Assembly: GCF_988243305.1 (NCBI RefSeq)
Contig: NZ_OZ547136.1
Length of the DNA: 64,000 nucleotides
Strand: one strand, 5' to 3'
Under the pieces are notes generated by a model that saw only the letters and a list, made by a program, of their open reading frames with translations, was not told the origin of the DNA and searched no databases. Positions 5,030-18,834 of the stretch are shown here, piece by piece (position 1 is the first letter of the stretch; each line of letters opens with the position of its first letter). The translations under genes and the position numbers were made by a program.

Positions 5030-5210
5030 AGGGTAGGGCGGTAGCGTATTTAATCAGGGAAAGATTACGCAACGCTGCTTTTTTGTATTGAACGATTCGC
5101 ATTTTATGTTTAAAAATTGCGATATTCCTTATTTCCTGAAGCTGTTTTTATTGCTTATACATGATCAAATACTCCTTACATAATTAAGGAGAACAAAATG
5201 GAACTTAATA
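5030..5210 (+). mobile_element. Remnant of H-repeat (ISAs1-family) element left end, ~150-180 bp, truncated right after the transposase start codon
   Basis: Near-identical to the 5' leader of the H-repeat copies at 10255-10440 and 14945-15095 (cagggaaagat...ttatgtttaaaaattg...gatcaaatactccttacataattaaggagaaca-ATG-GAACTTAA), then diverges. Confidence 0.6.
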
Positions 5211-5348
5211 CACGCCAACAATTTGTATTACTTAAATAGACCAGTGAAGGTACGCATCAGAACATCCGGTGAAGTGATTAATATTTCGTTGAATATTTCT
5301 CCCGATTTTTGAAACCTGCTGCTGTAGAAATTCTGAACAGGAGGAATT

Positions 5349-5633
5349 ATGCCTTTAGCAGCCAAACTCACCGACAAAGGCACCCAGCACGACGGTTATT
5401 ACGAGACCGTCATCACCGCCGGGTCATCCACCGTCTTTATCGATGGTCTTCCCGCAGCCCGTCAGGGAGATCCGCTGACGCCGCATGCTAAACCGAAGCA
5501 TCCCCCTCATCCCCGTAAAATCGCCAGAGGTTCTTCAACCGTCTTTATTGACGGCCTGCCCGCCGCCAGAAGCGGTGATGCTGTTGACTGCGGCGGCGTG
5601 GTTATTGGTGGCGGTACGGTAAATATAGGCTGA
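5349..5633 (+). CDS. PAAR-domain protein (T6SS spike tip)
   Basis: 94 aa; AGGAGG RBS 6-11 nt upstream; repeated GSSTVFIDGLPAAR(Q/S)GD motifs typical of PAAR; immediately upstream of vgrG. Confidence 0.75.
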   Translation: MPLAAKLTDKGTQHDGYYETVITAGSSTVFIDGLPAARQGDPLTPHAKPKHPPHPRKIARGSSTVFIDGLPAARSGDAVDCGGVVIGGGTVNIG

Positions 5634-5651
5634 TATGTCTGAGAGGTATTT

Positions 5652-7616
5652 ATGTCCTTAAAAGGTCTTCGCTTTACGCTGGAGGTTGACGGCCAGGAGC
5701 CGGACACCTTTGCAGTGGTGAATTTCAGGTTAATCCAGAACCAGTCATATCCGTTTGTGATGAGTGTGGATGTTGCCAGCGACTCTTTTATGCAGACGGC
5801 GGAGATGCTGCTGGAGAAGAAGGCGACACTGACCATCTGGCAGGGCGCAGTGGCGCAGCGTTATGTCACCGGCGTGGTGGCGGGTTTTGGCATGCAGGAG
5901 AATAACGGCTGGCAGATGCGTTATCACCTGCGTATTGAGCCGCCGTTATGGCGGTGCGGGCTGCGGCAGAACTTTCGTATCTTCCAGCAGCAGGATATCC
6001 GGACGATATCGGCCACGTTACTGAACGAGAACGGCGTCACGGAGTGGACGCCGCTGTTTTATGAGGACCATCCGGCGCGGGAGTTCTGTGTCCAGTACGG
6101 AGAGAGCGACCTGGCGTTTCTGTCCCGGCTGTGGGCGGAGGAGGGAATTTTCTTCTTTGAGCGGTTTGCGGCGGACAGTCCGGAGCAGAAGCTGACGCTG
6201 TGCGACGATGTGGCGGGGCTGTCACAGGCGGGGGAGTTTCCGTTTAACCCGGACACATCGGCAGGAGCGGAGACGGAGTGTGTCAGTATGTTCCGTTATG
6301 AGGCGCATGTCCGCCCGTCATCGGTGCAGAGCCAGGATTACACGTTTAAGGTGCCGGACTGGCCGGGGATGTATGAGCAGCAGGGTGAGAACCTGAACGG
6401 ACAGCTGGCGCAGTATGAGATATTTGATTATCCGGGAAGGTACAAGGATGAACAGCACGGCAAGGATTTCACGCTGTACCGGATGGAGAGCCTGCGCAGT
6501 GATGCGGAAAAGGCCACAGGGCAGAGTAATTCACCGAAGCTGTGGCCGGGAACGCGGTTTACGCTGACGGGGCATCCGCAGAAGATGCTGAACCGTGAAT
6601 GGCAGGTGGTACAGAGCATACTGTCAGGAAGCCAGCCGCAGGCGCTGCACGGCAGCCAGGGGAGAGGAACCACGCTGGGCAATCAGTTAGAGGTGATACC
6701 GGCGGACCGGACGTGGCGTCCACGGCTGCAAAGCAAACCGAAGGTGGACGGGCCACAGAGCGCCATTGTCACCGGTCCTGCGGGAGAGGAAATCTTCTGC
6801 GACGAACACGGACGTGTGCGAGTGCAGTTTCACTGGGACAGGTATAACCCGGCAACGGAGGCGAGTTCGTGCTGGGTGAGGGTGTCACAGGCGTGGGCGG
6901 GGCCGGGGTTCGGTAACCTGGCGATACCGCGGGTGGGCCAGGAGGTGATTGTTGATTTCCTGAACGGCGACCCGGACCAGCCGATAATCATGGGACGGAC
7001 ATACCATGAGGACAACCGTTCACCGGGGAGTCTGCCGGGGACGAAGACGCAGATGACGATACGGTCGAAGACCTATAAAGGTAGCGGATTTAACGAGCTG
7101 CGGTTTGAAGACGCCACCAGTAATGAGCAGGTGTATATCCATGCGCAGAAGAACATGGATACGGAGGTGCTCAACGACCGGACAACGGATGTGAAACATG
7201 ACCATACGGAAACCATCGGTAACAACCAGAAGATAACGGTGGTGAAGGGCCAGACGGTGAATGTGGGGAGCAAAAAGGAAGGTGGTCATGACCAGAAAGT
7301 GACAGTGGCGAATGACCAGACCATTACGGTACAAAACGATCAGCGGCTGGATGTTACCCACGATCGTCACAAGGATGTAGGGAACGATCAAATCAGTAAG
7401 ATAATAGGAAAAGATACCGAAGAAGTCGTGAAATCCCAGGATATTAAAGTTGGAGAAGATTACAGCCTGACAGTTACCAACAGCCTCACCATTAAAGTCG
7501 GTGAATGCTTACTGAAAATGAATAAGGACGGTACTATCATTCTCAATGGTAAAAGTATCCAGATTGAAGGAAAAGATAAAATCAATATTTTCGGCGCAGA
7601 TATTGATCTGGATTAA
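5652..7616 (+). CDS. vgrG: T6SS spike protein VgrG with divergent C-terminal tail
   Basis: 654 aa; canonical VgrG N-terminus (GLRFTLEVDG...PPLWRCGLRQNFRIFQ) and gp27/gp5-like body; last ~90 aa and underlying DNA (from ~7380) AT-rich and unlike the canonical VgrG C-terminus preserved at 11572-11916. Confidence 0.9.
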   Translation: MSLKGLRFTLEVDGQEPDTFAVVNFRLIQNQSYPFVMSVDVASDSFMQTAEMLLEKKATLTIWQGAVAQRYVTGVVAGFGMQENNGWQMRYHLRIEPPLWRCGLRQNFRIFQQQDIRTISATLLNENGVTEWTPLFYEDHPAREFCVQYGESDLAFLSRLWAEEGIFFFERFAADSPEQKLTLCDDVAGLSQAGEFPFNPDTSAGAETECVSMFRYEAHVRPSSVQSQDYTFKVPDWPGMYEQQGENLNGQLAQYEIFDYPGRYKDEQHGKDFTLYRMESLRSDAEKATGQSNSPKLWPGTRFTLTGHPQKMLNREWQVVQSILSGSQPQALHGSQGRGTTLGNQLEVIPADRTWRPRLQSKPKVDGPQSAIVTGPAGEEIFCDEHGRVRVQFHWDRYNPATEASSCWVRVSQAWAGPGFGNLAIPRVGQEVIVDFLNGDPDQPIIMGRTYHEDNRSPGSLPGTKTQMTIRSKTYKGSGFNELRFEDATSNEQVYIHAQKNMDTEVLNDRTTDVKHDHTETIGNNQKITVVKGQTVNVGSKKEGGHDQKVTVANDQTITVQNDQRLDVTHDRHKDVGNDQISKIIGKDTEEVVKSQDIKVGEDYSLTVTNSLTIKVGECLLKMNKDGTIILNGKSIQIEGKDKINIFGADIDLD

Positions 7617-7631
7617 TCTGGAGAAATTAAC

Positions 7632-8573
7632 ATGAATATTGAAAATGAAACTGGTTTTCCTCACTTTCAGTTCGAAAAAGTGGGATATTATGGTGAGTTA
7701 TTCACAGTAGTGGTAGTTAATCAGACATTTGATTTTTCATATAGCGGCGGTCTCTGTCTGATTGCGGATGAGCAGCGACTGCCACTGATGACCGACTCCT
7801 GGTACGGCGAACCGGAAAGCAGCAGTCTTAAAACAGCAACCGATTTGGTTTGCAGAAAAGTCAGGGCAGATGTTTTATTAAATGGACACGCATGGCATGC
7901 CACCGGGGAAACCACTCGATGGCAGGCCAGTTTACAGGTGGGTAATCTTCAGCGCCAATTTGATATATGTGGCCCTTGCCAATGGCAATATATATCTAAC
8001 CGCTGGCAACTTAGCGAACCTGAATTAACTGATCGGGTACTGTTACGCCATGAACTGGCGTCAGCCAGTGAATTTAATCCTGTAGGCATTGTTATTCCCT
8101 CCCTGATAACGCTTGGCGATAAATCGCCCTGTCCAGCTCCACAGTTATCTGCCTCACCAGGAGCTATTTGCCGTAGCTGGCCTTCACGATTGCGCTATGC
8201 CAGAGGTTTTACAGAACAGTGGCAAAAGACTGTTCAACCTTTTTATCCAGATGAATTCGATTTTGCATTCATGAATTATTCTCCACCAGAACAACAATAC
8301 GATGGTTATTTAATTGGCAATGAAAAAATTATATTGAACGGCCTGTTACCTTCTAAAATGGAACAAACTTGTTTCCTTCCAGATATTAGACTATTGGCGT
8401 ATTTGTTTTACCGCTCTGATAAAAACGTAGAACTGCGCCCATTGTTGGCTGACACACTGACCATCCACACAGACGATGAGCAACTAACACTACTCTGGCG
8501 CTTAACGCTCCCCGTGGATTCTCTTCCACAACGTATTGTTTTGACGACGGAGCAGAGGGGACCTCATGGCTGA
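7632..8573 (+). CDS. DUF2169-family T6SS adaptor protein
   Basis: 313 aa; N-terminus MNIENETGFPHF...FTVVVVNQTFDF fits the DUF2169 signature; 15 nt after vgrG stop and overlaps the next gene by 8 nt. Confidence 0.75.
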   Translation: MNIENETGFPHFQFEKVGYYGELFTVVVVNQTFDFSYSGGLCLIADEQRLPLMTDSWYGEPESSSLKTATDLVCRKVRADVLLNGHAWHATGETTRWQASLQVGNLQRQFDICGPCQWQYISNRWQLSEPELTDRVLLRHELASASEFNPVGIVIPSLITLGDKSPCPAPQLSASPGAICRSWPSRLRYARGFTEQWQKTVQPFYPDEFDFAFMNYSPPEQQYDGYLIGNEKIILNGLLPSKMEQTCFLPDIRLLAYLFYRSDKNVELRPLLADTLTIHTDDEQLTLLWRLTLPVDSLPQRIVLTTEQRGPHG

Positions 8574-9699
8574 AAATCATATTGGTTGTCGTGAATCGAA
8601 GTACGTTGCGATATGTATTGCGCCTGATGTCTGCAAGGTTGGTGATGCGATAGTGCCGTTTGACAGCTTTCAGAACCTGACACATGAGAAAATTTATATC
8701 AGCAATGTCAGGGCACGGGGCAATCCAATACTGACCGTGGACTGTATTATTGCAGGTACACGAAGTAATGCCGGGAAAGGTGTCAGTTCTGGCACCAGTC
8801 TGGGCAGCGGTGACTGCCGGATACTGACAGGCGTGGATCATATAAAGTGCAAGGGAAAGCCGGTAGCCAGGAATCTTTCGCTGGTTGCCATGAATAATGA
8901 TAATACTGTTGGAAAACTGTATACCCAGACAAACCCGCCAAATCAGATAATACCTGTTAAAGAATCATCGCTTTGGGCCAAGTATCTGGAACTGCAAATA
9001 CAACAGCAAGAGTTTGAGCTTGAGTCCAAAAAGCAAGAAGCAGATGCAATGATAGGATTAGGCAAGGCATTTATTAATGGCTGGTATATGTTGGGTGCAT
9101 TGATTGCCAAAGGTCAGATGCAAAATGACATTGCCCAAATGGAAAGTAATATTGCTCTGGCGAGAGGGTTGGGGATGGATACCCAAATTATGGAGCGGGC
9201 GAATGAGACCAACAGGGAGGTAATGGAAACTATTGATCCTAGAGAGCCATTGTTGAAACCTGCCAATGAAACCCAAGCAATGGCGATGGAGGTTGAGCCA
9301 TGGCTGGAACTTATGACCGGGGTTGGAGCACTGGTGAAAGGTTTGGTCAAGTTTTCAGCGAAGTTTGCAATAAAATCGGTTGGCAGAATGGGGAGGAGCG
9401 GTGCTAAAATTGTGCTGGATGCAAATGGATTGCCTATTCCTGTTCCTCCAAGCGTTGGCGCTGCGGGAAGAGTTCCGAGAGTATTACAAACTGGAGGTAA
9501 TACTCTTGAGGCAAGAACTGCCAGGGAGTTAAATGAATTTTTTGGTAAAAATATTAACAGGAGAGAATGGGGGAAAGCTTTAGAAAAGTTGAAAAAAGAT
9601 TTACGCTTACGAGGTGATCACCATGGTCGAATACTTGATAATGGTGATTATATTGATGACTCAGGAAATATTTTAGGAAACATAGAAGATTATTTATGA
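8566..9699 (+). CDS. DUF4150 (PAAR-like) N-terminal domain fused to unclassified C-terminal toxin domain; predicted T6SS effector
   Basis: 377 aa; N-terminal ~125 aa with PDVCK motif typical of PAAR-like DUF4150; C-terminal ~250 aa not recognisable by eye (ends ...RGDHHGRILDNGDYIDDSGNILGNIEDYL); start overlaps DUF2169 stop (ATGGCTGA). Confidence 0.7.
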   Translation: MAENHIGCRESKYVAICIAPDVCKVGDAIVPFDSFQNLTHEKIYISNVRARGNPILTVDCIIAGTRSNAGKGVSSGTSLGSGDCRILTGVDHIKCKGKPVARNLSLVAMNNDNTVGKLYTQTNPPNQIIPVKESSLWAKYLELQIQQQEFELESKKQEADAMIGLGKAFINGWYMLGALIAKGQMQNDIAQMESNIALARGLGMDTQIMERANETNREVMETIDPREPLLKPANETQAMAMEVEPWLELMTGVGALVKGLVKFSAKFAIKSVGRMGRSGAKIVLDANGLPIPVPPSVGAAGRVPRVLQTGGNTLEARTARELNEFFGKNINRREWGKALEKLKKDLRLRGDHHGRILDNGDYIDDSGNILGNIEDYL

Positions 9700-10175
9700 T
9701 TAAGAATATACAATCAAGGCTTACCCCGATATCTCATGAATATCCAAGTTGTGATGAGTGCTATGCTAGCCTCTTGATTTACACAGGTAATACTCACCCT
9801 AATGAAATAAGTATTCACTTAGAACTTGAGCCAACATCAATTAATATAAAAGGAGATGAAATTATTACTCTATCGGGAAAGAAAAGATATGCAAAAAATT
9901 CATATTGGATGCTCTCGTCAGAAAATCTAGTGAACTCGAAAGATATTCGAGAACATCTGGATTGGCTACTTCACAAACTTGGACCTAAATCATCAAATAT
10001 TGCAAAATTGCAAGCATTAGAAAATATTTCAATGGGTATTGACTGTACCTGGAGATCATTGAATTGGCACGGTGGGCCAACTTTATGGCCTGAGCAGATG
10101 AAAATAATGGCTAATCTTGGATTGGAGTGTTCATTTGATATTTATTTCGTCGGCAATGAAGATGGCAATCTTTAA
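9696..10175 (+). CDS. Candidate cognate immunity protein (cytoplasmic, no signal peptide)
   Basis: 159 aa; start overlaps effector stop (ATGA), suggesting translational coupling; AT-rich; no recognisable family. Confidence 0.5.
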   Translation: MIKNIQSRLTPISHEYPSCDECYASLLIYTGNTHPNEISIHLELEPTSINIKGDEIITLSGKKRYAKNSYWMLSSENLVNSKDIREHLDWLLHKLGPKSSNIAKLQALENISMGIDCTWRSLNWHGGPTLWPEQMKIMANLGLECSFDIYFVGNEDGNL

Positions 10176-10254
10176 TTATTGCTCGCAAATTTTTAATAAA
10201 CAAATAGCACAATAAAATACTCGGTATCTATGGTATATACCTAATAAACAAGGG

Positions 10255-11571
10255 CAGGGAAAGATCATCAGAAGTACACTTTTTGTACCAGGGAAAGATC
10301 ACGTAACGCTGCTTTTTTGTACTAAATAATTCGCATTTTATGTTTAAAAATTGAGATATTCCTCATTACCTGAAGCTGTTTTTTATTGAGTATACATGAT
10401 CAAATACTCCTTACATAATTAAGGAGAACACAATGGAACTTAAAAAATTGATGGAACATATTTCTATTATCCCCGATTACAGACAAGCCTGGAAAGTGGA
10501 GCATAAATTGTCGGATATTCTACTGTTGACTATTTGTGCCGTTATTTCTGGTGCAGAAGGCTGGGAAGATATAGAGGATTTTGGGGAAACACATCTCGAT
10601 TTTTTAAAACAATACGGTTATTTTGAAAATGGTATTCCTGTTCACGATACCATCGCCAGAGTTGTATCCTGTATCAGTCCTGCAAAATTTCACGAGTGCT
10701 TTATTAACTGGATGCGAGATTGCCATACTTCAGATGATAAAGACGTCATCACAATTGATGGAAAAACGCTCCGGCACTCTTATGACAAGAGTCGCCGCAG
10801 GGGAGCGATTCATGTCATTAGTGCGTTCTCAACAATGCACAGCCTGGTCATCGGACAGATCAAGACGGATGAGAAATCCAATGAGATTACAGCTATCCCA
10901 GAACTTCTTAACATGCTGGATATTAAAGGAAAAATCATCACAACTGATGCGATGGGTTGCCAGAAAGATATTGCAGAGAAGATACAAAAACAGGGAGGTG
11001 ATTATTTATTCGCTGTAAAAGGAAACCAGGGGCGGCTAAATAAAGCCTTCGAGGAAAAATTTCCGCTGAAAGAATTAAATAATCCAGAGCATGACAGTTA
11101 CGCAATTAGTGAAAAGAGTCACGGCAGAGAAGAAATCCGTCTTCACATTGTTTGCGATGTCCCTGATGAACTTATTGATTTCACGTTTGAATGGAAAGGT
11201 CTGAAGAAATTATGCGTGACAGTCTCCTTTCGGTCAATAATAGCAGAACAAAAGAAAGAGCCAGAAATGACGGTCAGATATTATATCAGTTCTGCTGATT
11301 TAACCGCAGAGAAGTTCGCCACAGCAATCCGAAACCACTGGCACGTGGAGAATAAGCTGCACTGGCGTCTGGACGTGGTAATGAATGAAGACGACTGCAA
11401 AATAAGAAGAGGAAATGCCGCAGAATTATTTTCAGGGATACGGCACATCGCTATTAATATTTTAACGAATGATAAGGTATTCAAGGCAGGGTTAAGATGT
11501 AAGATGCGAAAAGCAGCCATGGACAGAAACTACCTGGCGTCAGTCCTTGCTGGGAGCGGGCTTTCGTAATC
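10255..11571 (+). mobile_element. Intact H-repeat (ISAs1-family) element
   Basis: Left-end leader shared with two other copies; contains full 378 aa transposase ORF; right end abuts vgrG fragment. Confidence 0.8.
10433..11569 (+). CDS. H repeat-associated (ISAs1-family) transposase
   Basis: 378 aa [55 protein letters not shown]..., the conserved H-rpt ORF found with Rhs elements. Confidence 0.85.
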
Positions 11572-11916
11572 TTGCCCTGGCAGGAGCATAAGACGACGGG
11601 GAACCATGTCAGCCTGGTGGAGGGAAAGCACAGTCTGGAGGTGAAAGGCGATCTGGCGAGGAAGGTGAGTGGCACGCTGGGGATAAAGGTGGACGGGGAT
11701 ATCGTGCTGGAGAGCTGCAGCCGGATAAGCCTGAAGGTGGGCGGTTCGTTTATCGTTATTCAGTCGGGCGGTGTGGATATAGTGGGGCCGAAGATAAATC
11801 TTAATGGTGGGGGGAGTCCGGGGACACCGGTACCGACACTGCAACCCACTGTCCTGAACACTTTAGTCACTAATGATACGGATAGTAATACTGATGATGA
11901 TATCGGTAATGATTAG
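11572..11916 (+). pseudogene. vgrG: vgrG 3' fragment (canonical VgrG C-terminal ~110 aa), orphaned by H-repeat insertion or recombination
   Basis: Translation ...SRISLKVGGSFIVIQSGGVDIVGPKINLNGGGSPGTPVP matches canonical VgrG C-terminus; ORF-track start is a TTG immediately after transposase stop, so no genuine start. Confidence 0.7.
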
Positions 11917-12093
11917 ACCAGAGTGAAGTTCATGTTCTCGTAGCGGGATAATCATTCAGATAAAGATAACGGATGACGGTAGTAATAATAATACAATAAT
12001 ACTGTGATTTTCTGCTTTCTAAGCAGAGATGCTCTGTGAATGAATAATTCATACTCGTTACATGTTTTATAATCTTAATAAGGACTATTGATA

Positions 12094-14166
12094 ATGATAA
12101 TCAGCCCTCCAATATTGCATGCGCATATAGACACTGAAAAAGACTCTGACTGGGTAAACAGAATGATGTCTGTTGATCCAGAGAGAAATTTCCCAATGAA
12201 TAGCGGTCGTTCTTGGCATGGTGGAGTTCATTTGAACGGCAATCTGTCAGAGACTGTTAGGTGTATTGCCGATGGGAAGGTTATTTCAATACGCCAGCCA
12301 GAACCAGCGAAAAATACAGTTCCCCCGTTAAATTATAACGGAGTTACGGATAAAGGCTATGTTCTGATAAAACATGAAACAGAAATCGGTAGTGGAGAAG
12401 AGGGTAAAATCGTCTATTACTCATTATATATGCACCTGAGAAGCATTGACAGTAATGTGCAGCCGGGAAACACGCTATACCGGAAAGAACCGGTTGGTGC
12501 AGCAGGGATGGTGGACGGACAGAACGCCTTTCATTTTCAGATTTTTTGTGATGATGAAAACATTCAGAAAATCACAGGAAGAATATCACCGGAAACAGAC
12601 CTGAATAAAGATGGACGAACTAATGTGGTTTACGGTGATAGTCATTTTTATCTCCCTACCGGAACACCGATTTATGGGGACATGCCGGAAGAAAACTCGC
12701 TTGCGAACAACAGTCCGGTACAAAGAACCAGCGTGCCATTGTATGTCACAATGAGTTTTGATAAAGGCAATTGTACGATGGTGACGCGTCAGCAGCATGA
12801 AGTGCTGAGTGATTCCTATACTGAAGTAGGTTCTCCCTTGATTAATGCTGATGGTAAGGATTATGAATACAATCTCTATTCCTACGCGCTGCAACTCTAT
12901 CCGAAAAGCCCAAGTGCCGGTTATGAGATGCTGCGTTTTGGTCGGGTTGTTAATACAGAATATGAAGAATTAGTCCCGGCGGATGCGCCGCTGTGGAGAA
13001 CAATCAATACGCCACAGGGTAAAGGCGTTGTTAACTTAGGGGCGAGAGATATCAGGGTTTACAGCGACGGTGATTTTCCACACTGGACAGGGTGGAAACT
13101 GGTGAACGATGATGCGGACACCAACAGCCAGTGCAATTCACCAACAATCCTGTGTACAACCCGCAATGACCTAAGTCGGATGATTTGTCATTTTCCGCTA
13201 GAATGGGACAGCGCCACCGTGGAATCACGGTTTGAGTGGCTGAAATCACCCAATGACGTATTGAGTAAGCCGATGACAGAGCCTGACCTGGATTTGCTGA
13301 TAGAACACTGTAAGGCGCTTTGTTTGGTAGAGAATCCGTTACCTGCCAGGCGTGTATGGCATTTTGATCCCAGGCAGTTTATTGCACATTTCAGGAAATG
13401 TGGATGGTTAGGAGAAAATGATATTATAAGTGTGGTAAGACGTTATCAAAATGCTTATCCCATGACATCAGAACTTACAAGACCATTAAGTAAAGACACT
13501 CTAATTGAGCGGATTACTAGCCAAGGACAAAATAGCAGTGGTGAGATGATAAGACCTGCAGGGTTGAAAAATGAACTGTCAAAGTCACTAAGGAAGTACT
13601 TAATTACAACCCCATTGCGGATTGCGCATTATTTCGGTCAGATGGCGAGAGAAACAGGCAGATTTTCGTCTTTTATAGAGAATGGTGATTTGAGTTATTT
13701 TGATATGTATGAGCCAGGAACAGAACAGGGACTTAAGCTTGGAAATAATGTTGTTGGTGATGGTGCAAGATTTAAAGGCAGAGGTACCATACATCTAACT
13801 GGTCGTGAGAATTATAGAAATTATGGAAAGTATAGAAATCCGTCAGATGATGATTTTTTTACTACAGGACCCAATAACCAACTCCCAGTTGAAAATGCCT
13901 ATTTTTCTTGCGATGCCGGGGGATACTTTTGGGCAAGTAAGCAAAAATACATAATGGTAAGCCATCGATTGACACCTAGTGGTAGTTTAGGCGTTAATTA
14001 TTGGGCGGATAAAGGATGTAGTTTGTCACATGCCAGAGAAGTTACACGGCGAATAAACCCAGCAGCAGATGGCTTCGATTTAGTACGTTGGCCAGCATTT
14101 GAGCATTCTTGGTATGTATTGAATGATGAAATAACACCTCCACTTAATTACATAAGGATTGTTTAA
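12094..14166 (+). CDS. Predicted bifunctional peptidoglycan hydrolase effector: N-terminal M23-like peptidase domain, C-terminal GH19/lysozyme-like domain
   Basis: ORF-track start 12088 is TTG; ATG at 12094 has AAGGA RBS ~10 nt upstream (690 aa). N-terminal region aligns by eye to LytM/M23 (HGGVHL...YYSLYMHL...AFHFQIF) with non-canonical metal-ligand positions; C-terminal region carries GH19-like motifs (AHYFGQMARETG...GRGTIHLTGRENY...GGYFWASK). Confidence 0.7.
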   Translation: MIISPPILHAHIDTEKDSDWVNRMMSVDPERNFPMNSGRSWHGGVHLNGNLSETVRCIADGKVISIRQPEPAKNTVPPLNYNGVTDKGYVLIKHETEIGSGEEGKIVYYSLYMHLRSIDSNVQPGNTLYRKEPVGAAGMVDGQNAFHFQIFCDDENIQKITGRISPETDLNKDGRTNVVYGDSHFYLPTGTPIYGDMPEENSLANNSPVQRTSVPLYVTMSFDKGNCTMVTRQQHEVLSDSYTEVGSPLINADGKDYEYNLYSYALQLYPKSPSAGYEMLRFGRVVNTEYEELVPADAPLWRTINTPQGKGVVNLGARDIRVYSDGDFPHWTGWKLVNDDADTNSQCNSPTILCTTRNDLSRMICHFPLEWDSATVESRFEWLKSPNDVLSKPMTEPDLDLLIEHCKALCLVENPLPARRVWHFDPRQFIAHFRKCGWLGENDIISVVRRYQNAYPMTSELTRPLSKDTLIERITSQGQNSSGEMIRPAGLKNELSKSLRKYLITTPLRIAHYFGQMARETGRFSSFIENGDLSYFDMYEPGTEQGLKLGNNVVGDGARFKGRGTIHLTGRENYRNYGKYRNPSDDDFFTTGPNNQLPVENAYFSCDAGGYFWASKQKYIMVSHRLTPSGSLGVNYWADKGCSLSHAREVTRRINPAADGFDLVRWPAFEHSWYVLNDEITPPLNYIRIV

Positions 14167-14170
14167 AACA

Positions 14171-14674
14171 ATGAATTTTAAAAAAACAATAATCACTTCG
14201 GTAGGTTTGATATTTATTTCATTCTCTTTTGTGGCAGAGTGCTCTCAACTCAAAAATTTGAATAATTACTCAGTGATGCTTTGTGGAAAAGTGTCAAGTA
14301 ATATCCTTGATGATATTGGTGGTTATAAAGAAAGAGATAAAAAATCCGAAATGGTAGATTTACTTATATTAATTAGTAATGACGAGCCTATCGGTGTTTC
14401 TGAGACCAAAGTGATTTCTAATGGTAAAATATATTTTAAGGGGGAAAGTACTATGAACTTGGATGCCTCATTCATTATGACAATAAATGGTGGAGTTCAT
14501 ACTGACACTGTCACTTATATATCAAAGAAGAATAAAATTATCGGGGGCTACTTTTATAATAATGAGAGTAAAACTGATAAGCTTAAGGAAGTATATATCT
14601 CAAACACAGGAACTGTATATCATATAAATATTGAAAGTGTCAGCGATGATAAATGTCTTGATAAATTTAAGTAA
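14171..14674 (+). CDS. Candidate periplasmic immunity protein (Sec signal peptide)
   Basis: ORF-track start 14159 is TTG; ATG at 14171 gives MNFKKTIITSVGLIFISFSFVAEC... with hydrophobic signal sequence; 4 nt after effector stop; AT-rich. Confidence 0.5.
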   Translation: MNFKKTIITSVGLIFISFSFVAECSQLKNLNNYSVMLCGKVSSNILDDIGGYKERDKKSEMVDLLILISNDEPIGVSETKVISNGKIYFKGESTMNLDASFIMTINGGVHTDTVTYISKKNKIIGGYFYNNESKTDKLKEVYISNTGTVYHINIESVSDDKCLDKFK

Positions 14675-14944
14675 CGATAAGGCAAGGATGATTGATTGGG
14701 TTTAGTTAAGTTTCGAGAACAAATTTCCGCGGCAGAGAGTATAAATGTAGGGGCAAGAATGCTAAAATCGTGAAGTGCACCACAACTATAATTCCAGTTT
14801 ACTTTGTTTATTTGATTGTAATTTAACCATTAAATGATTAGGTTTTTTAGAAAAGGACGTCTGATGAATGTTTAAATTAATTTTGAATACATTTCAATTA
14901 TTTTGTTGTATGTTGGCAAGGTCAAATAAGACATAATTTAATGG

Positions 14945-15650
14945 CAGGGAAAGATCATCGTAAGTACACTTTTTGTACTAAATAATTTGCATTTTATGTT
15001 TAAAAATTGAGATATTCCTCATCACCTGAAGCTGTTTTTTATTACTTATATATGATCAAATACTCCTTACATAAATAAGGAGAACAAAATGGAACTTAAA
15101 AAATTGATGGAACATATTTCTATTATCCCCGATTACAGACAAGCCTGGAAAGTGGAACATAAATTATCGGATATTCTACTGTTGACTATTTGTGCTGTTA
15201 TTTCTGGTGCAGAAGGATGGGAAGATATAGAGGATTTTGGGGAAACACATCTCGATTTTTTGAAGCAATATTGTGATTTTGATAATGGTATTCCTGTTCA
15301 CGATACCATTGCCAGAGTTGTATCCTGTATCAGTCCTGAAAAATTTCATGAGTGCTTTATTAACTGGATGCTTGACTGCCATTCTTCAGATGATAAAGAC
15401 GTCATTGCAATTGATGGAAAAACGCTCCGGTACTCTTATGACAAGAGTCGTCGCAAGGGAGCGATTCACGTTATTAGTGTGTTCTCAATAATGCACAGTC
15501 AGATTCCTTGGAAGATCAAGACGAATGAAAAAAACAATGAGATTACAGCTGTTTCTGAATTTCTTAACATAATGGGTATTAAAGGAAAAATAATTGCACC
15601 GATCCAATGTGATACCAGAAAGACATCGCTAAGAAGATAGCTATAGACAA
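14945..15650 (+). mobile_element. Truncated H-repeat (ISAs1-family) element, 5' ~700 bp only
   Basis: Same left-end leader as the copy at 10255; transposase ORF frameshifted and truncated (183 aa) relative to the intact copy. Confidence 0.75.
15089..15640 (+). pseudogene. H-repeat transposase, truncated/frameshifted
   Basis: 183 aa, highly similar to residues 1-175 of the intact copy, then diverges and stops. Confidence 0.75.
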
Positions 15651-15713: not shown

Positions 15714-16811
15714 TTATAAAGCCCATCGATTTCGCCCACTTTCTTTCGCCCGGTATAACGCAGCGTCGGCATCTGAAATAATTTGTTCAGCCGTTTTTGC
15801 GGGAGCAGAACAGGTAATCCCCTGACTAACCGTAACGAATGCATTAACAGCAGATGCCTGATGTGGGATAGCTGCCAGTTTAAGTTCTTGCTTCACTCTG
15901 GCTGCTACCGTCTTTGCTTCCGGCAATGTTGCATTAAAAAGTATGATGGCAAACTCTTCGCCACCATAACGGACAACAACATCCTCCGACTGGCGAGTTG
16001 AACGCTGTAGAGCGTCGGCAACTTGTATTAGACAACGATCCCCAGCAGGATGCCCGTAAGTGTCGTTGTAACGTTTAAAAAAATCGACATCCAGCATAAT
16101 AAGAGCAAATGACCCGCCGTTATCCATCGCGTCGTGTAAGATACTGTTCATTGCACGTCGGTTTGCTATCCCAGTTAAAGGATCACGATGTGCTAATGCA
16201 TCAAGGCGATTAATTAACTGGTTGTTATAACTGTTTTGTACCCATGCTTCTTCAAACCAACGTAACAAAATGAGTCGCCCACCATATAGCGCCAGTGAAA
16301 AAATACACCATACAACAGCAAAATGAATATTGATCTGTTGATTAAGCATAAGACTCGCTATTGGAGTGGTGAACCATAAGGGAATGACAAATGCGAGCAA
16401 TGATGGGGTATGGAAATAAAGTGCGACAACGCCACTAAGCATTAATAATACACATAGTGGATAAGCAAACTGCAGCGTCCAGTACGCAATAAAGTGATAA
16501 CTACACCATGACCATAGCAGGCTCAGGGCAACTAATAGCACCTGGATAGGTAATGTTTTTTGCCGAGGGATGAGTAGTAAACCACTGCAAATCAGCAGAA
16601 TACCCGTTGCAGATATATCAATAGAATGTATAAGGCTTTTTTCATTTAACCAGGGTGGAGTAAGGTCATTAAACAGAACACGGCGCAGCAAAATTATCAA
16701 TGCAAAACTGACATTGATAAAAGCAAACCATGGCAAACTAATTGTCATGCCGCGGATAACCATATCGCGGCGTGTTTGCCACGAGTGATGCGTTTTTCTT
16801 CTTTCAGCCAT
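15714..16811 (-). CDS. Membrane-anchored diguanylate cyclase (GGDEF domain)
   Basis: 365 aa; N-terminal multi-TM region; C-terminal GGDEF domain with RYGGEEF active-site motif and conserved DVDFFKRYND...GH.AGD pattern; absent from this position in K-12. Confidence 0.85.
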   Translation of the reverse strand: MAERRKTHHSWQTRRDMVIRGMTISLPWFAFINVSFALIILLRRVLFNDLTPPWLNEKSLIHSIDISATGILLICSGLLLIPRQKTLPIQVLLVALSLLWSWCSYHFIAYWTLQFAYPLCVLLMLSGVVALYFHTPSLLAFVIPLWFTTPIASLMLNQQINIHFAVVWCIFSLALYGGRLILLRWFEEAWVQNSYNNQLINRLDALAHRDPLTGIANRRAMNSILHDAMDNGGSFALIMLDVDFFKRYNDTYGHPAGDRCLIQVADALQRSTRQSEDVVVRYGGEEFAIILFNATLPEAKTVAARVKQELKLAAIPHQASAVNAFVTVSQGITCSAPAKTAEQIISDADAALYRAKESGRNRWAL

Positions 16812-16857: not shown

Positions 16858-18834
16858 TTATGGTGTCACTATATTGAACCAAAATTCAAAATTATCCATA
16901 TAACCTAACAGCTCGTTGAGCTTTTCCGCATTGCCGGTAATTTTGACATCACCTTTGTCCGTGGCTTCTTTCAGCGTCTCTTCTTTCAGTACAATTTTGT
17001 TCAATACATCACGAGATAGAGAGATAGTGGCATCAGCCTCCGAAGCCTCTACACCAGCGGTATGATTGAGAACACCATTTTCAAGCTCTACCTTATAGGT
17101 GCCGCCATCTTCACCAAAATCGAAATTCAACACGGCTTTGGCATCTGCCGCTTTCTCACCATTAATATGGACGGCAAGATAATCAAAGAACATTTCTGGC
17201 GTCATTGCACGCACAGTGTCAGGGCTGGCAGTATTTGGTGTTGGTAATTTTTGTACGCCGTTACGCAATTCCTGTGCACCAGTGAGATAGAAATTACGCC
17301 ACGGCCCAGATTCAGCCTGATAGCCTAACTGCTCAAGCGCATCAGCTTCCAGATTTCTCGCTGCCTGGTTGTTTGGATCCGCAAACACCACCTTACTAAC
17401 AACTTGGGCAACCCAGCGGAAATTACCCTGGTCATAATCCTGTTTGGCTTTCTGTAAAATGGCATCAGCACCGCCCATATACTCGACGAATTTTTTTGCG
17501 CCTTCTTCTGGCGGTAGTTCATCAAGCGTCGCGGGGTTACCATCAAACCAGCCGAGATAAAGCACGTAAGTTGCTTTCACGTCATGACTTACCGAACCGT
17601 AATAGCCGCGATTCGCCCAGGTGTTAGCCAGTGAAGAGGGCAGTTTAAAGTTTGCGGCAATTTCATCACGGGTCATCCCTTGATTAGCCATGCGCAGAGT
17701 TTGATCATTGATGTAACGATACAAATCACGCTGGCTTTTAAGCAGTTTGACCACGTTATCGTTGCCCCAGGTTGGCCAGTGATGTTGAGCGAGAATAATC
17801 TCGGCTTTATCACCCCACAAATTGAGAGCTTCATTAATATATTTTGACCACGGCAGCGGTTGGCGAATTTTAGCCCCACGCAGCGAATAGGTGTTATGAA
17901 GGGTGTGCGTGACATCTTCAGCGGTTTCGATCAGTTTCTTTTCTTCAATAAACCACAGCATTTCAGAAGGCGCTTCAGAACCTGGCGCCATCAGGAAATC
18001 ATAAGTCAACCCGTCAATAGTTTCTTTTTGTCCGGTTTTGGTGATGTAGTTAGTAGGAGCAATCAACGTGACTGTTCCTGCTGAAGTAGTCGTTCCCAGT
18101 CCAGCCCCCACCTGGCCTTTAACATCAGGTTTCAATAAGTTGCCATACATATAACTGGCTCGTCGGCTCATCACATTGCCAGCCATAATATTTTCGGAAA
18201 CGGCTTCCTCCAAAAATCCGGCTGGCGCATAGATTTTAACTTTGCCTGATTTAACGTCAGCTTCATCAATTACGCCACGAACACCACCGTAGTGATCGAC
18301 ATGACTGTGTGTATAGATAACCGCCACTACCGGTTTTTTGCCGCGATTTTTGTAATAGAGATCCATACCCACTTTGGCTGTTTCTGCTGAAACAAGGGGA
18401 TCAACGACGGTAATACCCTCTTTGCCTTCAATGATGGTCATATTTGATAGATCGAGATTGCGAATCTGATAGACACCTTCAGTTACTTCGAATAACCCGC
18501 TGATATTTATCAGTTGCGCCTGACGCCATAAACTCGGATTCACCGTATCAGGGGCTTTATCGCCTTCTTTGATAAAAGCGTAATGTTGTGGATCCCAGAT
18601 AACATTCCCTTGTTCGCCCTTAATCACGTCTTGAGGGATAGGGGCAATAAAACCTTTATGGGCATCAGTAAAGTCAGTGTTATCGGCAAACGGCAACTGG
18701 TTGGAGAGTAAATTGTTTGCTTGTTGCGTGGCTGCGGTGGCGTCTTTAGGAGCTTCCGCCGCGAGGAGAGGTAAAGAACTGGTGGTGAATAATCCCGTTA
18801 TTAGCAGACTTTTAACGATATGATTAAGCTGCAT
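16858..18834 (-). CDS. Secreted alkyl/aryl sulfatase, metallo-beta-lactamase fold (YjcS/SdsA1/BDS1-like)
   Basis: 658 aa; signal peptide MQLNHIVKSLLITGLFTTSSLPLLAAEAP; MBL motif THSHVDHYGG; C-terminal SCP2-like dimerisation region typical of the family; not at this locus in K-12. Confidence 0.8.
   Translation of the reverse strand: MQLNHIVKSLLITGLFTTSSLPLLAAEAPKDATAATQQANNLLSNQLPFADNTDFTDAHKGFIAPIPQDVIKGEQGNVIWDPQHYAFIKEGDKAPDTVNPSLWRQAQLINISGLFEVTEGVYQIRNLDLSNMTIIEGKEGITVVDPLVSAETAKVGMDLYYKNRGKKPVVAVIYTHSHVDHYGGVRGVIDEADVKSGKVKIYAPAGFLEEAVSENIMAGNVMSRRASYMYGNLLKPDVKGQVGAGLGTTTSAGTVTLIAPTNYITKTGQKETIDGLTYDFLMAPGSEAPSEMLWFIEEKKLIETAEDVTHTLHNTYSLRGAKIRQPLPWSKYINEALNLWGDKAEIILAQHHWPTWGNDNVVKLLKSQRDLYRYINDQTLRMANQGMTRDEIAANFKLPSSLANTWANRGYYGSVSHDVKATYVLYLGWFDGNPATLDELPPEEGAKKFVEYMGGADAILQKAKQDYDQGNFRWVAQVVSKVVFADPNNQAARNLEADALEQLGYQAESGPWRNFYLTGAQELRNGVQKLPTPNTASPDTVRAMTPEMFFDYLAVHINGEKAADAKAVLNFDFGEDGGTYKVELENGVLNHTAGVEASEADATISLSRDVLNKIVLKEETLKEATDKGDVKITGNAEKLNELLGYMDNFEFWFNIVTP

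Follow-up and report, generated by a model that had tools for sequence, protein, structure and literature searches.

A candidate T6SS effector-immunity pair of WHIX subclass I, probably stranded behind a vgrG remnant in Escherichia coli

The gene pair at positions 12,094 to 14,674 of the window (the whole 64,000-nucleotide stretch analysed, from contig NZ_OZ547136.1 of RefSeq assembly GCF_988243305.1) is, in our judgement, likely to encode a TseP-like T6SS effector of WHIX subclass I and its immunity protein, as a polymorphic module. The effector combines an M23/LytM fold at its N-terminus with a GH19-type domain at its C-terminus, and a small gene follows it closely. A sequence-only reading of this DNA had implied that the combination of two folds was new; the same architecture has, however, been described for WHIX subclass I and for the TseP family (PMC11893102), a class to which the effector very probably belongs. 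In the source strain the pair is probably stranded, and the features on which these statements draw are as follows (window coordinates).

10289..11582, + strand: ISEc1 (ISAs1 family), transposase ORF 10433-11569, from the annotation and comparison with E. coli PS10-3
11572..11916, + strand: vgrG 3' remnant, ~112 codons, with the C-terminal tail still present, the expected docking place of a WHIX domain
12094..14166, + strand: effector gene, 690 aa, WHIX subclass I / TseP-like candidate T6SS cargo effector (RefSeq 'peptidase M23', WP_311207266)
12094..13443, + strand: WHIX domain, aa 1-~450, from conservation, BLASTP to Va01435 and Foldseek matches to M23
12214..12231, + strand: WHxxxH motif, W41-H42-G-G-V-H46, read directly from the sequence
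13492..14163, + strand: GH19-type (endolysin/chitinase-like) predicted muramidase domain, ~aa 467-690, from phmmer, Foldseek and PHROG
13651-13653 and 13678-13680, + strand: putative catalytic Glu residues E520 and E529
14171..14674, + strand: candidate immunity gene, 167 aa, 4 nt past the effector stop, with a hydrophobic N-terminus
14940..15640, + strand: truncated and frameshifted ISAs1-family copy, ORF 15089-15640, annotated as a partial ISAs1 pseudogene

The effector gene and its WHIX domain

Read from the ATG at 12094, the effector is the intact 690-residue protein (78.1 kDa) that had been claimed, and RefSeq annotates the same gene; the listed ORF, of 692 aa, begins at a TTG at 12088. 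All motifs quoted earlier are found in its translation, namely SWHGGVHL (W41-H42...H46), YMHL (H114) and NAFHFQ (A145, H147) in the N-terminal domain, and AHYFGQMARETG (E520), FIENGD (E529), GRGTIHLTGRENY (T569) and YFWASK in the C-terminal domain. A word-indexed search returned 898 homologues, and there are 3558 cluster representatives at E<=0.001, so that this family is not a chance ORF. The AlphaFold2 model is very confident (pLDDT 95.6, pTM 0.94). An NCBIfam search gave zero matches for the effector, and relatives carry the database names 'M23 family metallopeptidase', 'hydroxyethylthiazole kinase' and 'kinase'. The effector is not described in the T6SS studies of Salmonella Dublin, STEC and EHEC that were compared. 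Promoter and terminator scans performed at chance level (13 found, 11.3 expected).

The WHIX domain consists of an M23/LytM-like beta core (~aa 29-160) and then a beta-rich and helical region that bears the conserved SDxDFPxWxGW, FPxEW and WHFxPRxF. All 114 aligned homologues share its WHxxxH motif unchanged, and 247 of the 268 retrieved homologues have it; W41, H42, G44, H46, H94, G135, G138, G181, D327 and W334 are likewise invariant across the 114, in which H114, H147, E370, W371 and W422, among others, are conserved in at least 90%. WHxxxH defines WHIX, a T6SS secretion domain (Fridman et al., PLoS Biol 2025, PMC12135965), which alone suffices for T6SS secretion, binds the C-terminal tail of VgrG4, and is most commonly followed by a C-terminal domain of the 'Chitinase-like' class (PMC12135965). 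Aligned by hhalign, the family profile and the founding WHIX effector P0350 match with 99.7% probability (E 7e-26, 549 aligned columns), from residue 29 to 663 of the effector and 27 to 718 of P0350, a span that takes in both WHIX regions and the GH19 domain. Homology covers both conserved WHIX regions of the founder (WP_005373349.1, aa 31-126 and 271-476), region 1 alone giving E 8e-12, and BLASTP of the effector against residues 33-120 of Va01435 gives E 4e-8; the Va01435 query sequence is 100% identical to V. alginolyticus proteins. The invariant WHxxxH and the end-to-end alignment with the founder together point to WHIX subclass I for the effector; the motif begins at residue 41, as in the founder (W41), within the subclass I limit on N-terminal extension of <~99 aa. 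The earlier statement that the protein has no obvious T6SS targeting marker is thus not supported, since HGGVH is itself part of the WHxxxH signature.

Va01435 (V. alginolyticus), the WHIX founder, shares with our effector the succession of WHxxxH domain and GH19/chitinase-like toxin, and is likewise encoded after vgrG and followed by a small gene with a signal-like N-terminus. Pairwise identity is only ~21-27%, however, and the effector WHIX domain is compact, with its two conserved regions contiguous where those of the Vibrio protein lie ~150 aa apart (aa 127-270); a conserved MxISPPFL N-terminus is found in the effector family and not in the founder. A search with the Vibrio founder returned Vibrionaceae proteins only. 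Eight accessions of the effector clade, two from E. coli and six homologues (WP_311207266 and WP_000587243 among them), are absent from the published WHIX tree. That tree does hold WP_082107153.1 from Chromobacterium, the last 100 aa of which are near-identical to those of P0078, a homologue with 45% full-length identity to the effector. The WHIX authors' membership filter was RPS-BLAST with their PSSM (E<=1e-6, >=70% domain coverage), and a compact WHIX domain without the founder's ~150-aa insert could miss its coverage requirement.

That the N-terminal domain has an M23/LytM fold with altered metal-site residues had been proposed by eye, and three observations bear this out: a weak match to Pfam PF01551 (M23; E 3e-4), the sole Pfam match of the effector; Foldseek matches of the N-terminus of the AlphaFold2 model to lysostaphin (9e-6), Csd2, ShyA, LytM and EnvC; and a family-profile match to the M23 protein Pgp3. 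Single-sequence phmmer of residues 1-200 against the PDB found no M23 protein, only chance matches to nitrite reductases; M23 was reached with a family profile. The effector shares its beta-sheet core with canonical M23/LytM peptidases (lysostaphin, LytM, ShyA, Pgp3) and with the degenerate EnvC, but here the core sits inside a larger module of ~450 aa. WHxxxH stands where M23 peptidases have the zinc motif HxxxD, a His taking the place of Asp (HGGVH, H42...H46) without exception in the family. The second zinc motif, HxH, departs from the canonical pattern in the same family-wide manner, to xxH (A145-F-H147): in the Pgp3 profile alignment H147 falls on the second His and the first position has no conserved residue. 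Kept at the site are H42, H46 and H147, all potential ligands, together with the His of M23 'YxHL' (H114); this His and the last His of HxH line up with those of canonical M23 in the Pgp3 alignment.

The retention of these histidines raises the possibility of a truly bifunctional toxin, in which the M23-derived domain would be a Zn-dependent amidase or peptidase acting beside the GH19 domain, with one immunity protein blocking both. H42, H46 and H94 are invariant in the effector family and H114 and H147 at least 90% conserved, a pattern that points to selection on the metal site, in contrast to degenerate LytM domains, and the M23 fold itself is confirmed by Foldseek and the Pgp3 profile match. 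Mutagenesis of TseP-N targeted H19/H23 of its HxxxH, and the domain is reported to be an amidase that depends on Zn and is blocked by TsiP; two TseP homologues, AHA_1849 and PSPTO_5204, act likewise (PMC11893102). Against this stand the absent first His of HxH (A145), the His in place of Asp, the lack of a separate upstream immunity gene and the pairing of near-identical N-domains with unrelated downstream proteins once the C-domain is swapped (see below). The near-invariance of three His at the M23 metal site suits an enzyme as well as a docking module. Amidase activity in this domain is possible by analogy with TseP; a fully bifunctional toxin seems to us rather doubtful.

TseP of Aeromonas dhakensis (Wang et al., eLife 2025, PMC11893102; 8XCL) is cited by the WHIX authors as WHIX-containing and T6SS-secreted (PMC12135965). 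It has the N-domain HxxxH pair in common with the effector, a comparison that covers this pair only of the TseP Zn-site residues H19, H23, H109, H339, H359 and E539; the TseP numbering was sought among the retrieved homologues and none fitted. The TseP N-domain has been superposed on the M23 structure 3SLU, and its C-terminal lysozyme was solved with the GH19 endolysin 4OK7 as search model (PMC11893102). As at the effector locus, a VgrG gene lies upstream of TseP and one immunity gene downstream, and GC content drops stepwise from vgrG to N-domain to C-domain; the corresponding values at the effector locus are 0.54, 0.45 and 0.39, with 0.30 in the immunity gene. TseP differs in being longer and annotated with an EF-hand, and the effector C-domain is closer to the endolysin 9MS7 than to 8XCL.

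Awe1 (Aeromonas jandaei), of the 'double-blade' WHIX subclass II, also has a WHIX core that attaches to the C-terminal tail of VgrG, together with a peptidoglycan-targeting C-domain, but adds a canonical M23 domain N-terminal to WHIX and has two immunity genes, one upstream and one downstream. Membership of subclass II was rejected for our effector because W41 lies too near the N-terminus to leave room for an extra domain and no gene, hence no upstream immunity gene, stands between vgrG and the effector. The Enterobacter 'M23 peptidase' effector (PMC10763514) was also considered and set aside, being a DUF3289-M23 protein of other architecture.

The GH19-type domain and the downstream gene

The GH19/chitinase-like character assigned earlier to the C-terminus is well supported. 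Against the PDB, phmmer matches 9ms7 (E 1e-9), 4ok7 and 8xcl (TseP-C, E 8e-4), and Foldseek matches 9ms7 (5e-8, TMt 0.77), 9eoi, 4ok7, chitinase C (1wvu) and 8xcl, this last weakly but with the same GH19-like fold (E 6e-3, probability 1.00, TMt 0.48). PHROG endolysin families match at 8e-20; Pfam Glyco_hydro_19 stays below threshold for this domain. E520 and E529, the two proposed catalytic residues, align with Glu residues of 9ms7 and are conserved in at least 90% of homologues, as are G562, R563, G564 and T569, and the domain carries a GRGxxxLTGxxNY motif. The profile and structure-prediction check suggested for both domains thus returned an M23/LytM fold at the N-terminus and a GH19 endolysin fold at the C-terminus, the latter likely to have muramidase activity.

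GH19 phage endolysins (SPN1S 4OK7, PWe2 9MS7, P. aeruginosa 9EOI) have the same fold, the Glu...Glu pair and a GRGxxQ(L/I)TGxxNY motif, and with the PHROG families and the name 'Pyocin R, lytic enzyme' borne by some database homologues they could suggest a phage- or pyocin-derived lytic enzyme, an endolysin plus M23 domain unrelated to T6SS. We regard such an origin as highly improbable. In contrast to the phage enzymes, the GH19 domain here shares a polypeptide with a T6SS delivery domain and has a candidate immunity gene as partner; flanking phage genes are absent, the effector gene comes immediately after vgrG in every locus examined, often in T6SS core clusters, and the N-terminal 450 aa are homologous to a domain experimentally shown to mediate T6SS secretion.

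A tightly linked downstream ORF with a signal-like N-terminus had been noted; it is confirmed by the 4-nt gap, an AAGGA ribosome-binding site and a hydrophobic, signal-like N-terminal segment. The product is an 18.7 kDa precursor (~16.1 kDa if residues 1-23 are removed, the cleavage point being assumed) with a predicted beta-rich fold and two invariant cysteines in its alignment, C38 and C162. A lipoprotein reading was rejected, as V-A-E-C before C24 is, by eye, no lipobox. Pfam, NCBIfam and PHROG searches found no match for this protein, and a word-indexed search found 9 close relatives. Its AlphaFold2 model is of moderate quality (pLDDT 67.6), and comparison with PDB folds gave at best generic beta-sheet or lipocalin/LolA-like matches, none significant (E>0.007), for which reason no family is assigned.

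Comparison of loci indicates that it is the C-domain, not the N-domain, that the immunity gene tracks. In Salmonella and Buttiauxella, the closest effector orthologues are followed by homologues of the candidate immunity protein (30-31% identity, E ~1e-18); P0009 and P0003 (the latter from Buttiauxella) have the same C-domain type (56-61%) and a downstream ORF homologous to the candidate immunity gene. P0046, by contrast, is 71% identical to the effector in the N-domain, but its C-domain has been swapped (28%) and the ORF that follows is unrelated. This co-variation argues against the N-domain as a toxin requiring its own antidote. The Enterobacter and Chromobacterium orthologues have similar C-domains (53-57%), yet downstream ORFs without detectable similarity to 14171-14674, and the immunity assignment is for this reason by position only; the downstream protein would probably protect the producer.

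The vgrG remnant and insertion sequences

The vgrG remnant reported upstream of the effector is real: at the DNA level it shares 85-87% identity with annotated vgrG genes at their 3' ends, and it is colinear with a full vgrG, that of E. coli PS10-3, only from window position 11580. The NCBIfam VgrG match of the remnant is weak. Gene order in PS10-3 is PAAR-vgrG-effector-immunity, and against this arrangement ISEc1 stands in place of the PAAR gene and ~1.8 kb of the cognate vgrG; the truncated ISAs1-family copy at 14940..15640 forms the right edge of the module. All seven related loci have a full PAAR-vgrG or vgrG directly upstream of the effector, and a vgrG upstream with a small ORF of hydrophobic N-terminus downstream recurs in Salmonella, Yersinia, Chromobacterium, Enterobacter and Buttiauxella, the effector loci often lying within T6SS core clusters (tssB/C, hcp or clpV). 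This synteny agrees with the earlier suggestion of a VgrG-linked cargo effector with a coupled downstream gene.

With PAAR and the greater part of the cognate vgrG lost to an ISEc1-associated deletion, the intact pair can probably not be delivered any more, and we put it at slightly better than even that the module is a non-functional relic in the source strain, with at most the immunity gene under selection. There is only a single copy of the vgrG tail sequence in the source genome; the vgrG still present, at 5652-7616, ends in a different C-terminus and is accompanied by DUF2169/PAAR-like cargo of its own. Among 5426 complete E. coli genomes, the full effector is kept in only 19 and 134 others have the scar only (CFT073, Nissle 1917 and ABU 83972 included); in PS10-3 itself the cognate vgrG is frameshifted. 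This conclusion must be tempered by the state of the effector gene, a full-length ORF 98-99% identical to other E. coli copies with every conserved residue intact, as well as by the possibilities that the effector loads on another VgrG or travels by another route; TseP domains are reported as secreted separately.

Proposed mechanism and implications

In the working model of a WHIX subclass I module, the WHIX domain (~450 N-terminal residues), built around a diverged M23/LytM core in which HxH lacks its first His, would, as Awe1 and TseP suggest, likely dock on the product of the vgrG immediately upstream, at its C-terminal tail, and the T6SS spike would carry the docked effector out. The GH19-type domain (E520/E529) would be the main toxic part, cutting glycan strands of peptidoglycan in the prey periplasm, and the 167-aa protein, presumably co-transcribed, would be exported to the producer's periplasm to neutralise it. 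Delivery would then have been lost, as is likely, through the ISEc1-mediated deletion of PAAR and most of the cognate vgrG, and the pair may persist mainly as immunity or as a relic.

A more speculative extension, to which we give limited credence, is that WHxxxH is a remodelled M23 zinc site and the T6SS 'secretion domain' a former peptidoglycan peptidase whose substrate groove now holds the VgrG tail. While the effector is loaded, such a domain would have its groove filled and might be auto-inhibited; on release it could work as a Zn-dependent amidase. The E. coli/Enterobacterales clade would represent a minimal, insert-free form of WHIX that is under-represented in the published catalogue. 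If true, this would reconcile two unconnected published descriptions, the WHIX adaptor and the TseP-N amidase. The compact, very confidently modelled effector (pLDDT 95.6) would be a handy subject for asking whether the WHIX His cluster binds zinc, the VgrG tail or both.

Database labels that are widespread among the effector's relatives are corrected by this analysis, and an E. coli toxin/antidote pair, hitherto uncharacterised, finds its place in an effector class that has been studied by experiment. The locus also illustrates the decay of vgrG islands in E. coli, in which IS elements can strand an intact effector, as probably here, and of which CFT073 and Nissle 1917 retain only the scar of the effector and immunity genes.

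Identity of the 690-residue protein

The window is E. coli chromosomal DNA with 99.9% identity to strain Z1323HEC0462. Its variable vgrG island is annotated between yncG and pptA, and the features run in the following order.

Features of the vgrG island (window coordinates)
5349-5633, PAAR, first gene of the upstream module
5652-7616, intact vgrG, directly after PAAR
7632-8573, DUF2169 adaptor, after the intact vgrG
8566-9699, PAAR-like/DUF4150 toxin (377 aa), C-terminal domain without assignment
9696-10175, DUF4279 candidate immunity gene, after the PAAR-like/DUF4150 toxin
10433-11569, transposase ORF of ISEc1, between the DUF4279 gene and the vgrG fragment
11572-11916, short vgrG 3' fragment, between ISEc1 and the effector gene
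12094-14166 (+), 690-aa effector gene, 3' of the vgrG fragment
14171-14674 (+), 167-aa candidate immunity gene, directly 3' of the effector gene
truncated ISAs1 copy, 3' of the 167-aa gene

The 690-aa ORF claimed by the sequence-only reading is present with an ATG start at 12094, and the motifs quoted for it were all found (SWHGGVHL, YMHL, NAFHFQ, AHYFGQMARETG, FIENGD, GRGTIHLTGRENY, YFWASK). Homologues (898 by a word-indexed search; by an exhaustive one, 3558 cluster representatives at E<=0.001) range over Enterobacterales, Chromobacterium, Pseudomonas, Burkholderia and others, and the gene is evidently genuine and widely conserved. Database names of its relatives include 'hydroxyethylthiazole kinase', 'kinase', 'putative membrane protein', 'EF-hand domain-containing protein', 'Pyocin R, lytic enzyme' and 'M23 family metallopeptidase', and no name among these points to a T6SS effector role.

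The same reading saw no obvious T6SS targeting marker, but the HGGVH it flagged as odd is, on sequence grounds, together with the preceding W41, the WHxxxH motif that gives the T6SS delivery domain WHIX its name (Fridman et al., PLoS Biol 2025, PMC12135965). WHIX alone suffices for T6SS secretion, the VgrG C-terminal tail is predicted to be WHIX-capped (VgrG4 co-precipitates with WHIX only if the tail is present), and a peptidoglycan-degrading domain, most often 'chitinase-like', usually follows (PMC12135965). We transcribed the founding effector Va01435 (WP_005373349.1) from the AlphaFold file of that paper and checked it by database search, which returned 100% identity to V. alginolyticus proteins, several annotated as GH19 family. 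BLASTP aligns effector residues 33-115 with founder residues 33-120 (E 4e-8), and the family profile matches the full-length founder at 99.7% probability (E 7e-26), in an alignment extending from the WHxxxH region through FPxEW and WHFxP motifs to the GH19 domain. A Chromobacterium protein in the published WHIX tree (WP_082107153.1, PMC12135965) is near-identical over its C-terminal 100 aa to P0078, a full-length homologue with 45% identity to the effector. The E. coli effector accessions tested are absent from that tree, possibly because Vibrio WHIX comprises two regions parted by a ~150-aa insert that the E. coli clade lacks, so that its members may miss the 70% coverage demanded by the authors' filter. 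The MxISPPFL N-terminus (window 12094-12117, residues 1-8), modelled at pLDDT ~96, is shared by at least 90% of homologues, which come from several bacterial orders; the Vibrio founder lacks it. We read the protein as a member of the TseP-like WHIX subclass I effectors, a class described in 2025, and not as the novel bifunctional architecture without a targeting marker implied earlier.

Folds, conserved residues and probable mechanism

An AlphaFold2 model built from an alignment of 114 homologues has very high confidence (pLDDT 95.6, pTM 0.94), and its split by Foldseek against the PDB agrees with both folds proposed from sequence, M23-like and GH19. Residues ~467-690 resemble GH19 endolysins (9ms7, 5e-8; also 9eoi and SPN1S 4ok7), with further matches to chitinase C (1wvu) and TseP-C (8xcl), and sequence searches support this call (PDB phmmer 1e-9; PHROG endolysin families 8e-20). 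The N-terminal core resembles M23/LytM domains (lysostaphin, 9e-6; Csd2, ShyA, LytM, EnvC); sequence support here is weak (Pfam M23 E 3e-4; family profile against Pgp3 E 0.0045), and a single-sequence search of the PDB with the N-domain found no match. In the 114-sequence alignment W41, H42, G44, H46 and H94 are invariant, while H114 and H147 and, in the GH19 domain, E520, E529, G562-R563-G564 and T569 are kept in at least 90%.

TseP of Aeromonas dhakensis is cited among the WHIX proteins with demonstrated secretion (PMC12135965). Its N-domain is reported to be a Zn-dependent amidase, superposed on the M23 structure 3SLU, whose activity is lowered by mutating H19 or H23 (the HxxxH pair), H109, H339, H359 or E539; it also binds VgrG2 and supports T6SS assembly, and for the lysozyme TseP-C (8XCL) the search model was 4OK7, a GH19 endolysin (Wang et al., eLife 2025, PMC11893102). 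Only the HxxxH pair is equated between those mutated residues and the effector. Profile alignment to Pgp3 places H114 at the M23 'YxHL' histidine and H147 at the latter His of HxH; A145, a position without conservation in the family, stands where the first His would be. An additional amidase activity at the His-rich, M23-derived site of this protein we regard as possible but rather unlikely. By the mechanism we consider most likely, and hold with good confidence, the WHIX domain would dock on the VgrG tail, the GH19 domain would cleave glycan, and the downstream periplasmic protein would neutralise the GH19-bearing effector. We hypothesize that a WHIX signature lying exactly at the M23 zinc-binding positions may reconcile the 'adaptor' and 'amidase' descriptions; we found this overlap spelled out in neither PMC12135965 nor PMC11893102.

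The downstream gene and its pairing

The tight linkage noted earlier holds: the 167-aa ORF starts 4 nt past the effector stop, with an AAGGA ribosome-binding site and a hydrophobic N-terminal segment. All related loci examined (Salmonella, Yersinia, Chromobacterium, Enterobacter, Buttiauxella) have vgrG directly 5' and, directly 3', a small ORF whose N-terminus is hydrophobic, often within T6SS core clusters; the order in E. coli PS10-3 is PAAR-vgrG-effector-immunity. Downstream proteins of the two closest effector orthologues are homologous to the 167-aa protein (30-31% identity, E ~1e-18), and two Cys residues invariant in the aligned family would fit a periplasmic disulfide. The predicted fold of the 167-aa protein matched no known inhibitor.

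A Salmonella homologue (P0046) shares the N-domain (71% identity) but has a different C-domain (28%) and an unrelated downstream ORF, which indicates that the candidate immunity protein pairs with the C-terminal blade rather than with WHIX. Polymorphic toxins usually show such joint swapping of C-domain and immunity gene. In orthologues from Enterobacter and Chromobacterium the C-domains are similar to the effector's, but they are followed by downstream ORFs without detectable similarity to the 167-aa protein, suggesting that the immunity family is fast-evolving or replaceable. In TseP, the single downstream protein TsiP inhibits TseP-N as well as TseP-C (PMC11893102). GC content falls stepwise across window 11572-14674 (vgrG remnant 0.54, WHIX part 0.45, GH19 part 0.39 and immunity gene 0.30, against a window mean of 0.48), like the gradient reported for tseP (PMC11893102), which suggests that modules of different origin were put together here.

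Decay of the locus and apparent exchange of vgrG tails

A survey of 5426 complete E. coli genomes found the full effector in 19 and the immunity gene, to 80% of its length or more, in 33. Another 134, including CFT073, Nissle 1917 and ABU 83972, retain only a scar that consists of the effector's final 234 nt and generally also the opening ~169 nt of the immunity gene. The CFT073 scar (6001-6406 of its locus, L007) lies 3' of another kind of module, PAAR-vgrG-'peptidase M35'; the 164-aa ORF annotated there is a chimera (56 aa at 91% identity to the 167-aa protein, the rest unrelated). Between the ISAs1 remnant and pptA the window carries genes for a membrane sensor whose GGEEF motif is of the diguanylate cyclase type (15714-16811, -) and for an alkyl sulfatase (16858-18834, -); both are absent at that position in PS10-3 and CFT073, and therefore make up a further insert by which the island varies.

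Upstream, window 5349-10175 holds a second module for T6SS cargo, PAAR through DUF4279, which appears intact; its PAAR-like/DUF4150 toxin gene is annotated in RefSeq at 1002 nt, shorter than the 1134-nt ORF found here. When window 5206-7317 is compared with 9772-11882 of the PS10-3 locus (L002), the body of its vgrG shares 94% DNA identity with the PS10-3 vgrG preceding the effector. Because most of the difference between these spikes lies at the 3' ends, cargo appears to be specified by tail exchange on a common vgrG body.

Colinearity with the PS10-3 locus restarts only at window 11580, 364 nt before the vgrG end, the PAAR gene and ~1.8 kb of the cognate vgrG having been replaced by ISEc1. 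The tail sequence of the remnant occurs only once in the source genome, and the intact upstream vgrG (5652-7616) has another C-terminus and its own cargo. If WHIX loading needs the cognate tail, the effector would be stranded in this strain.
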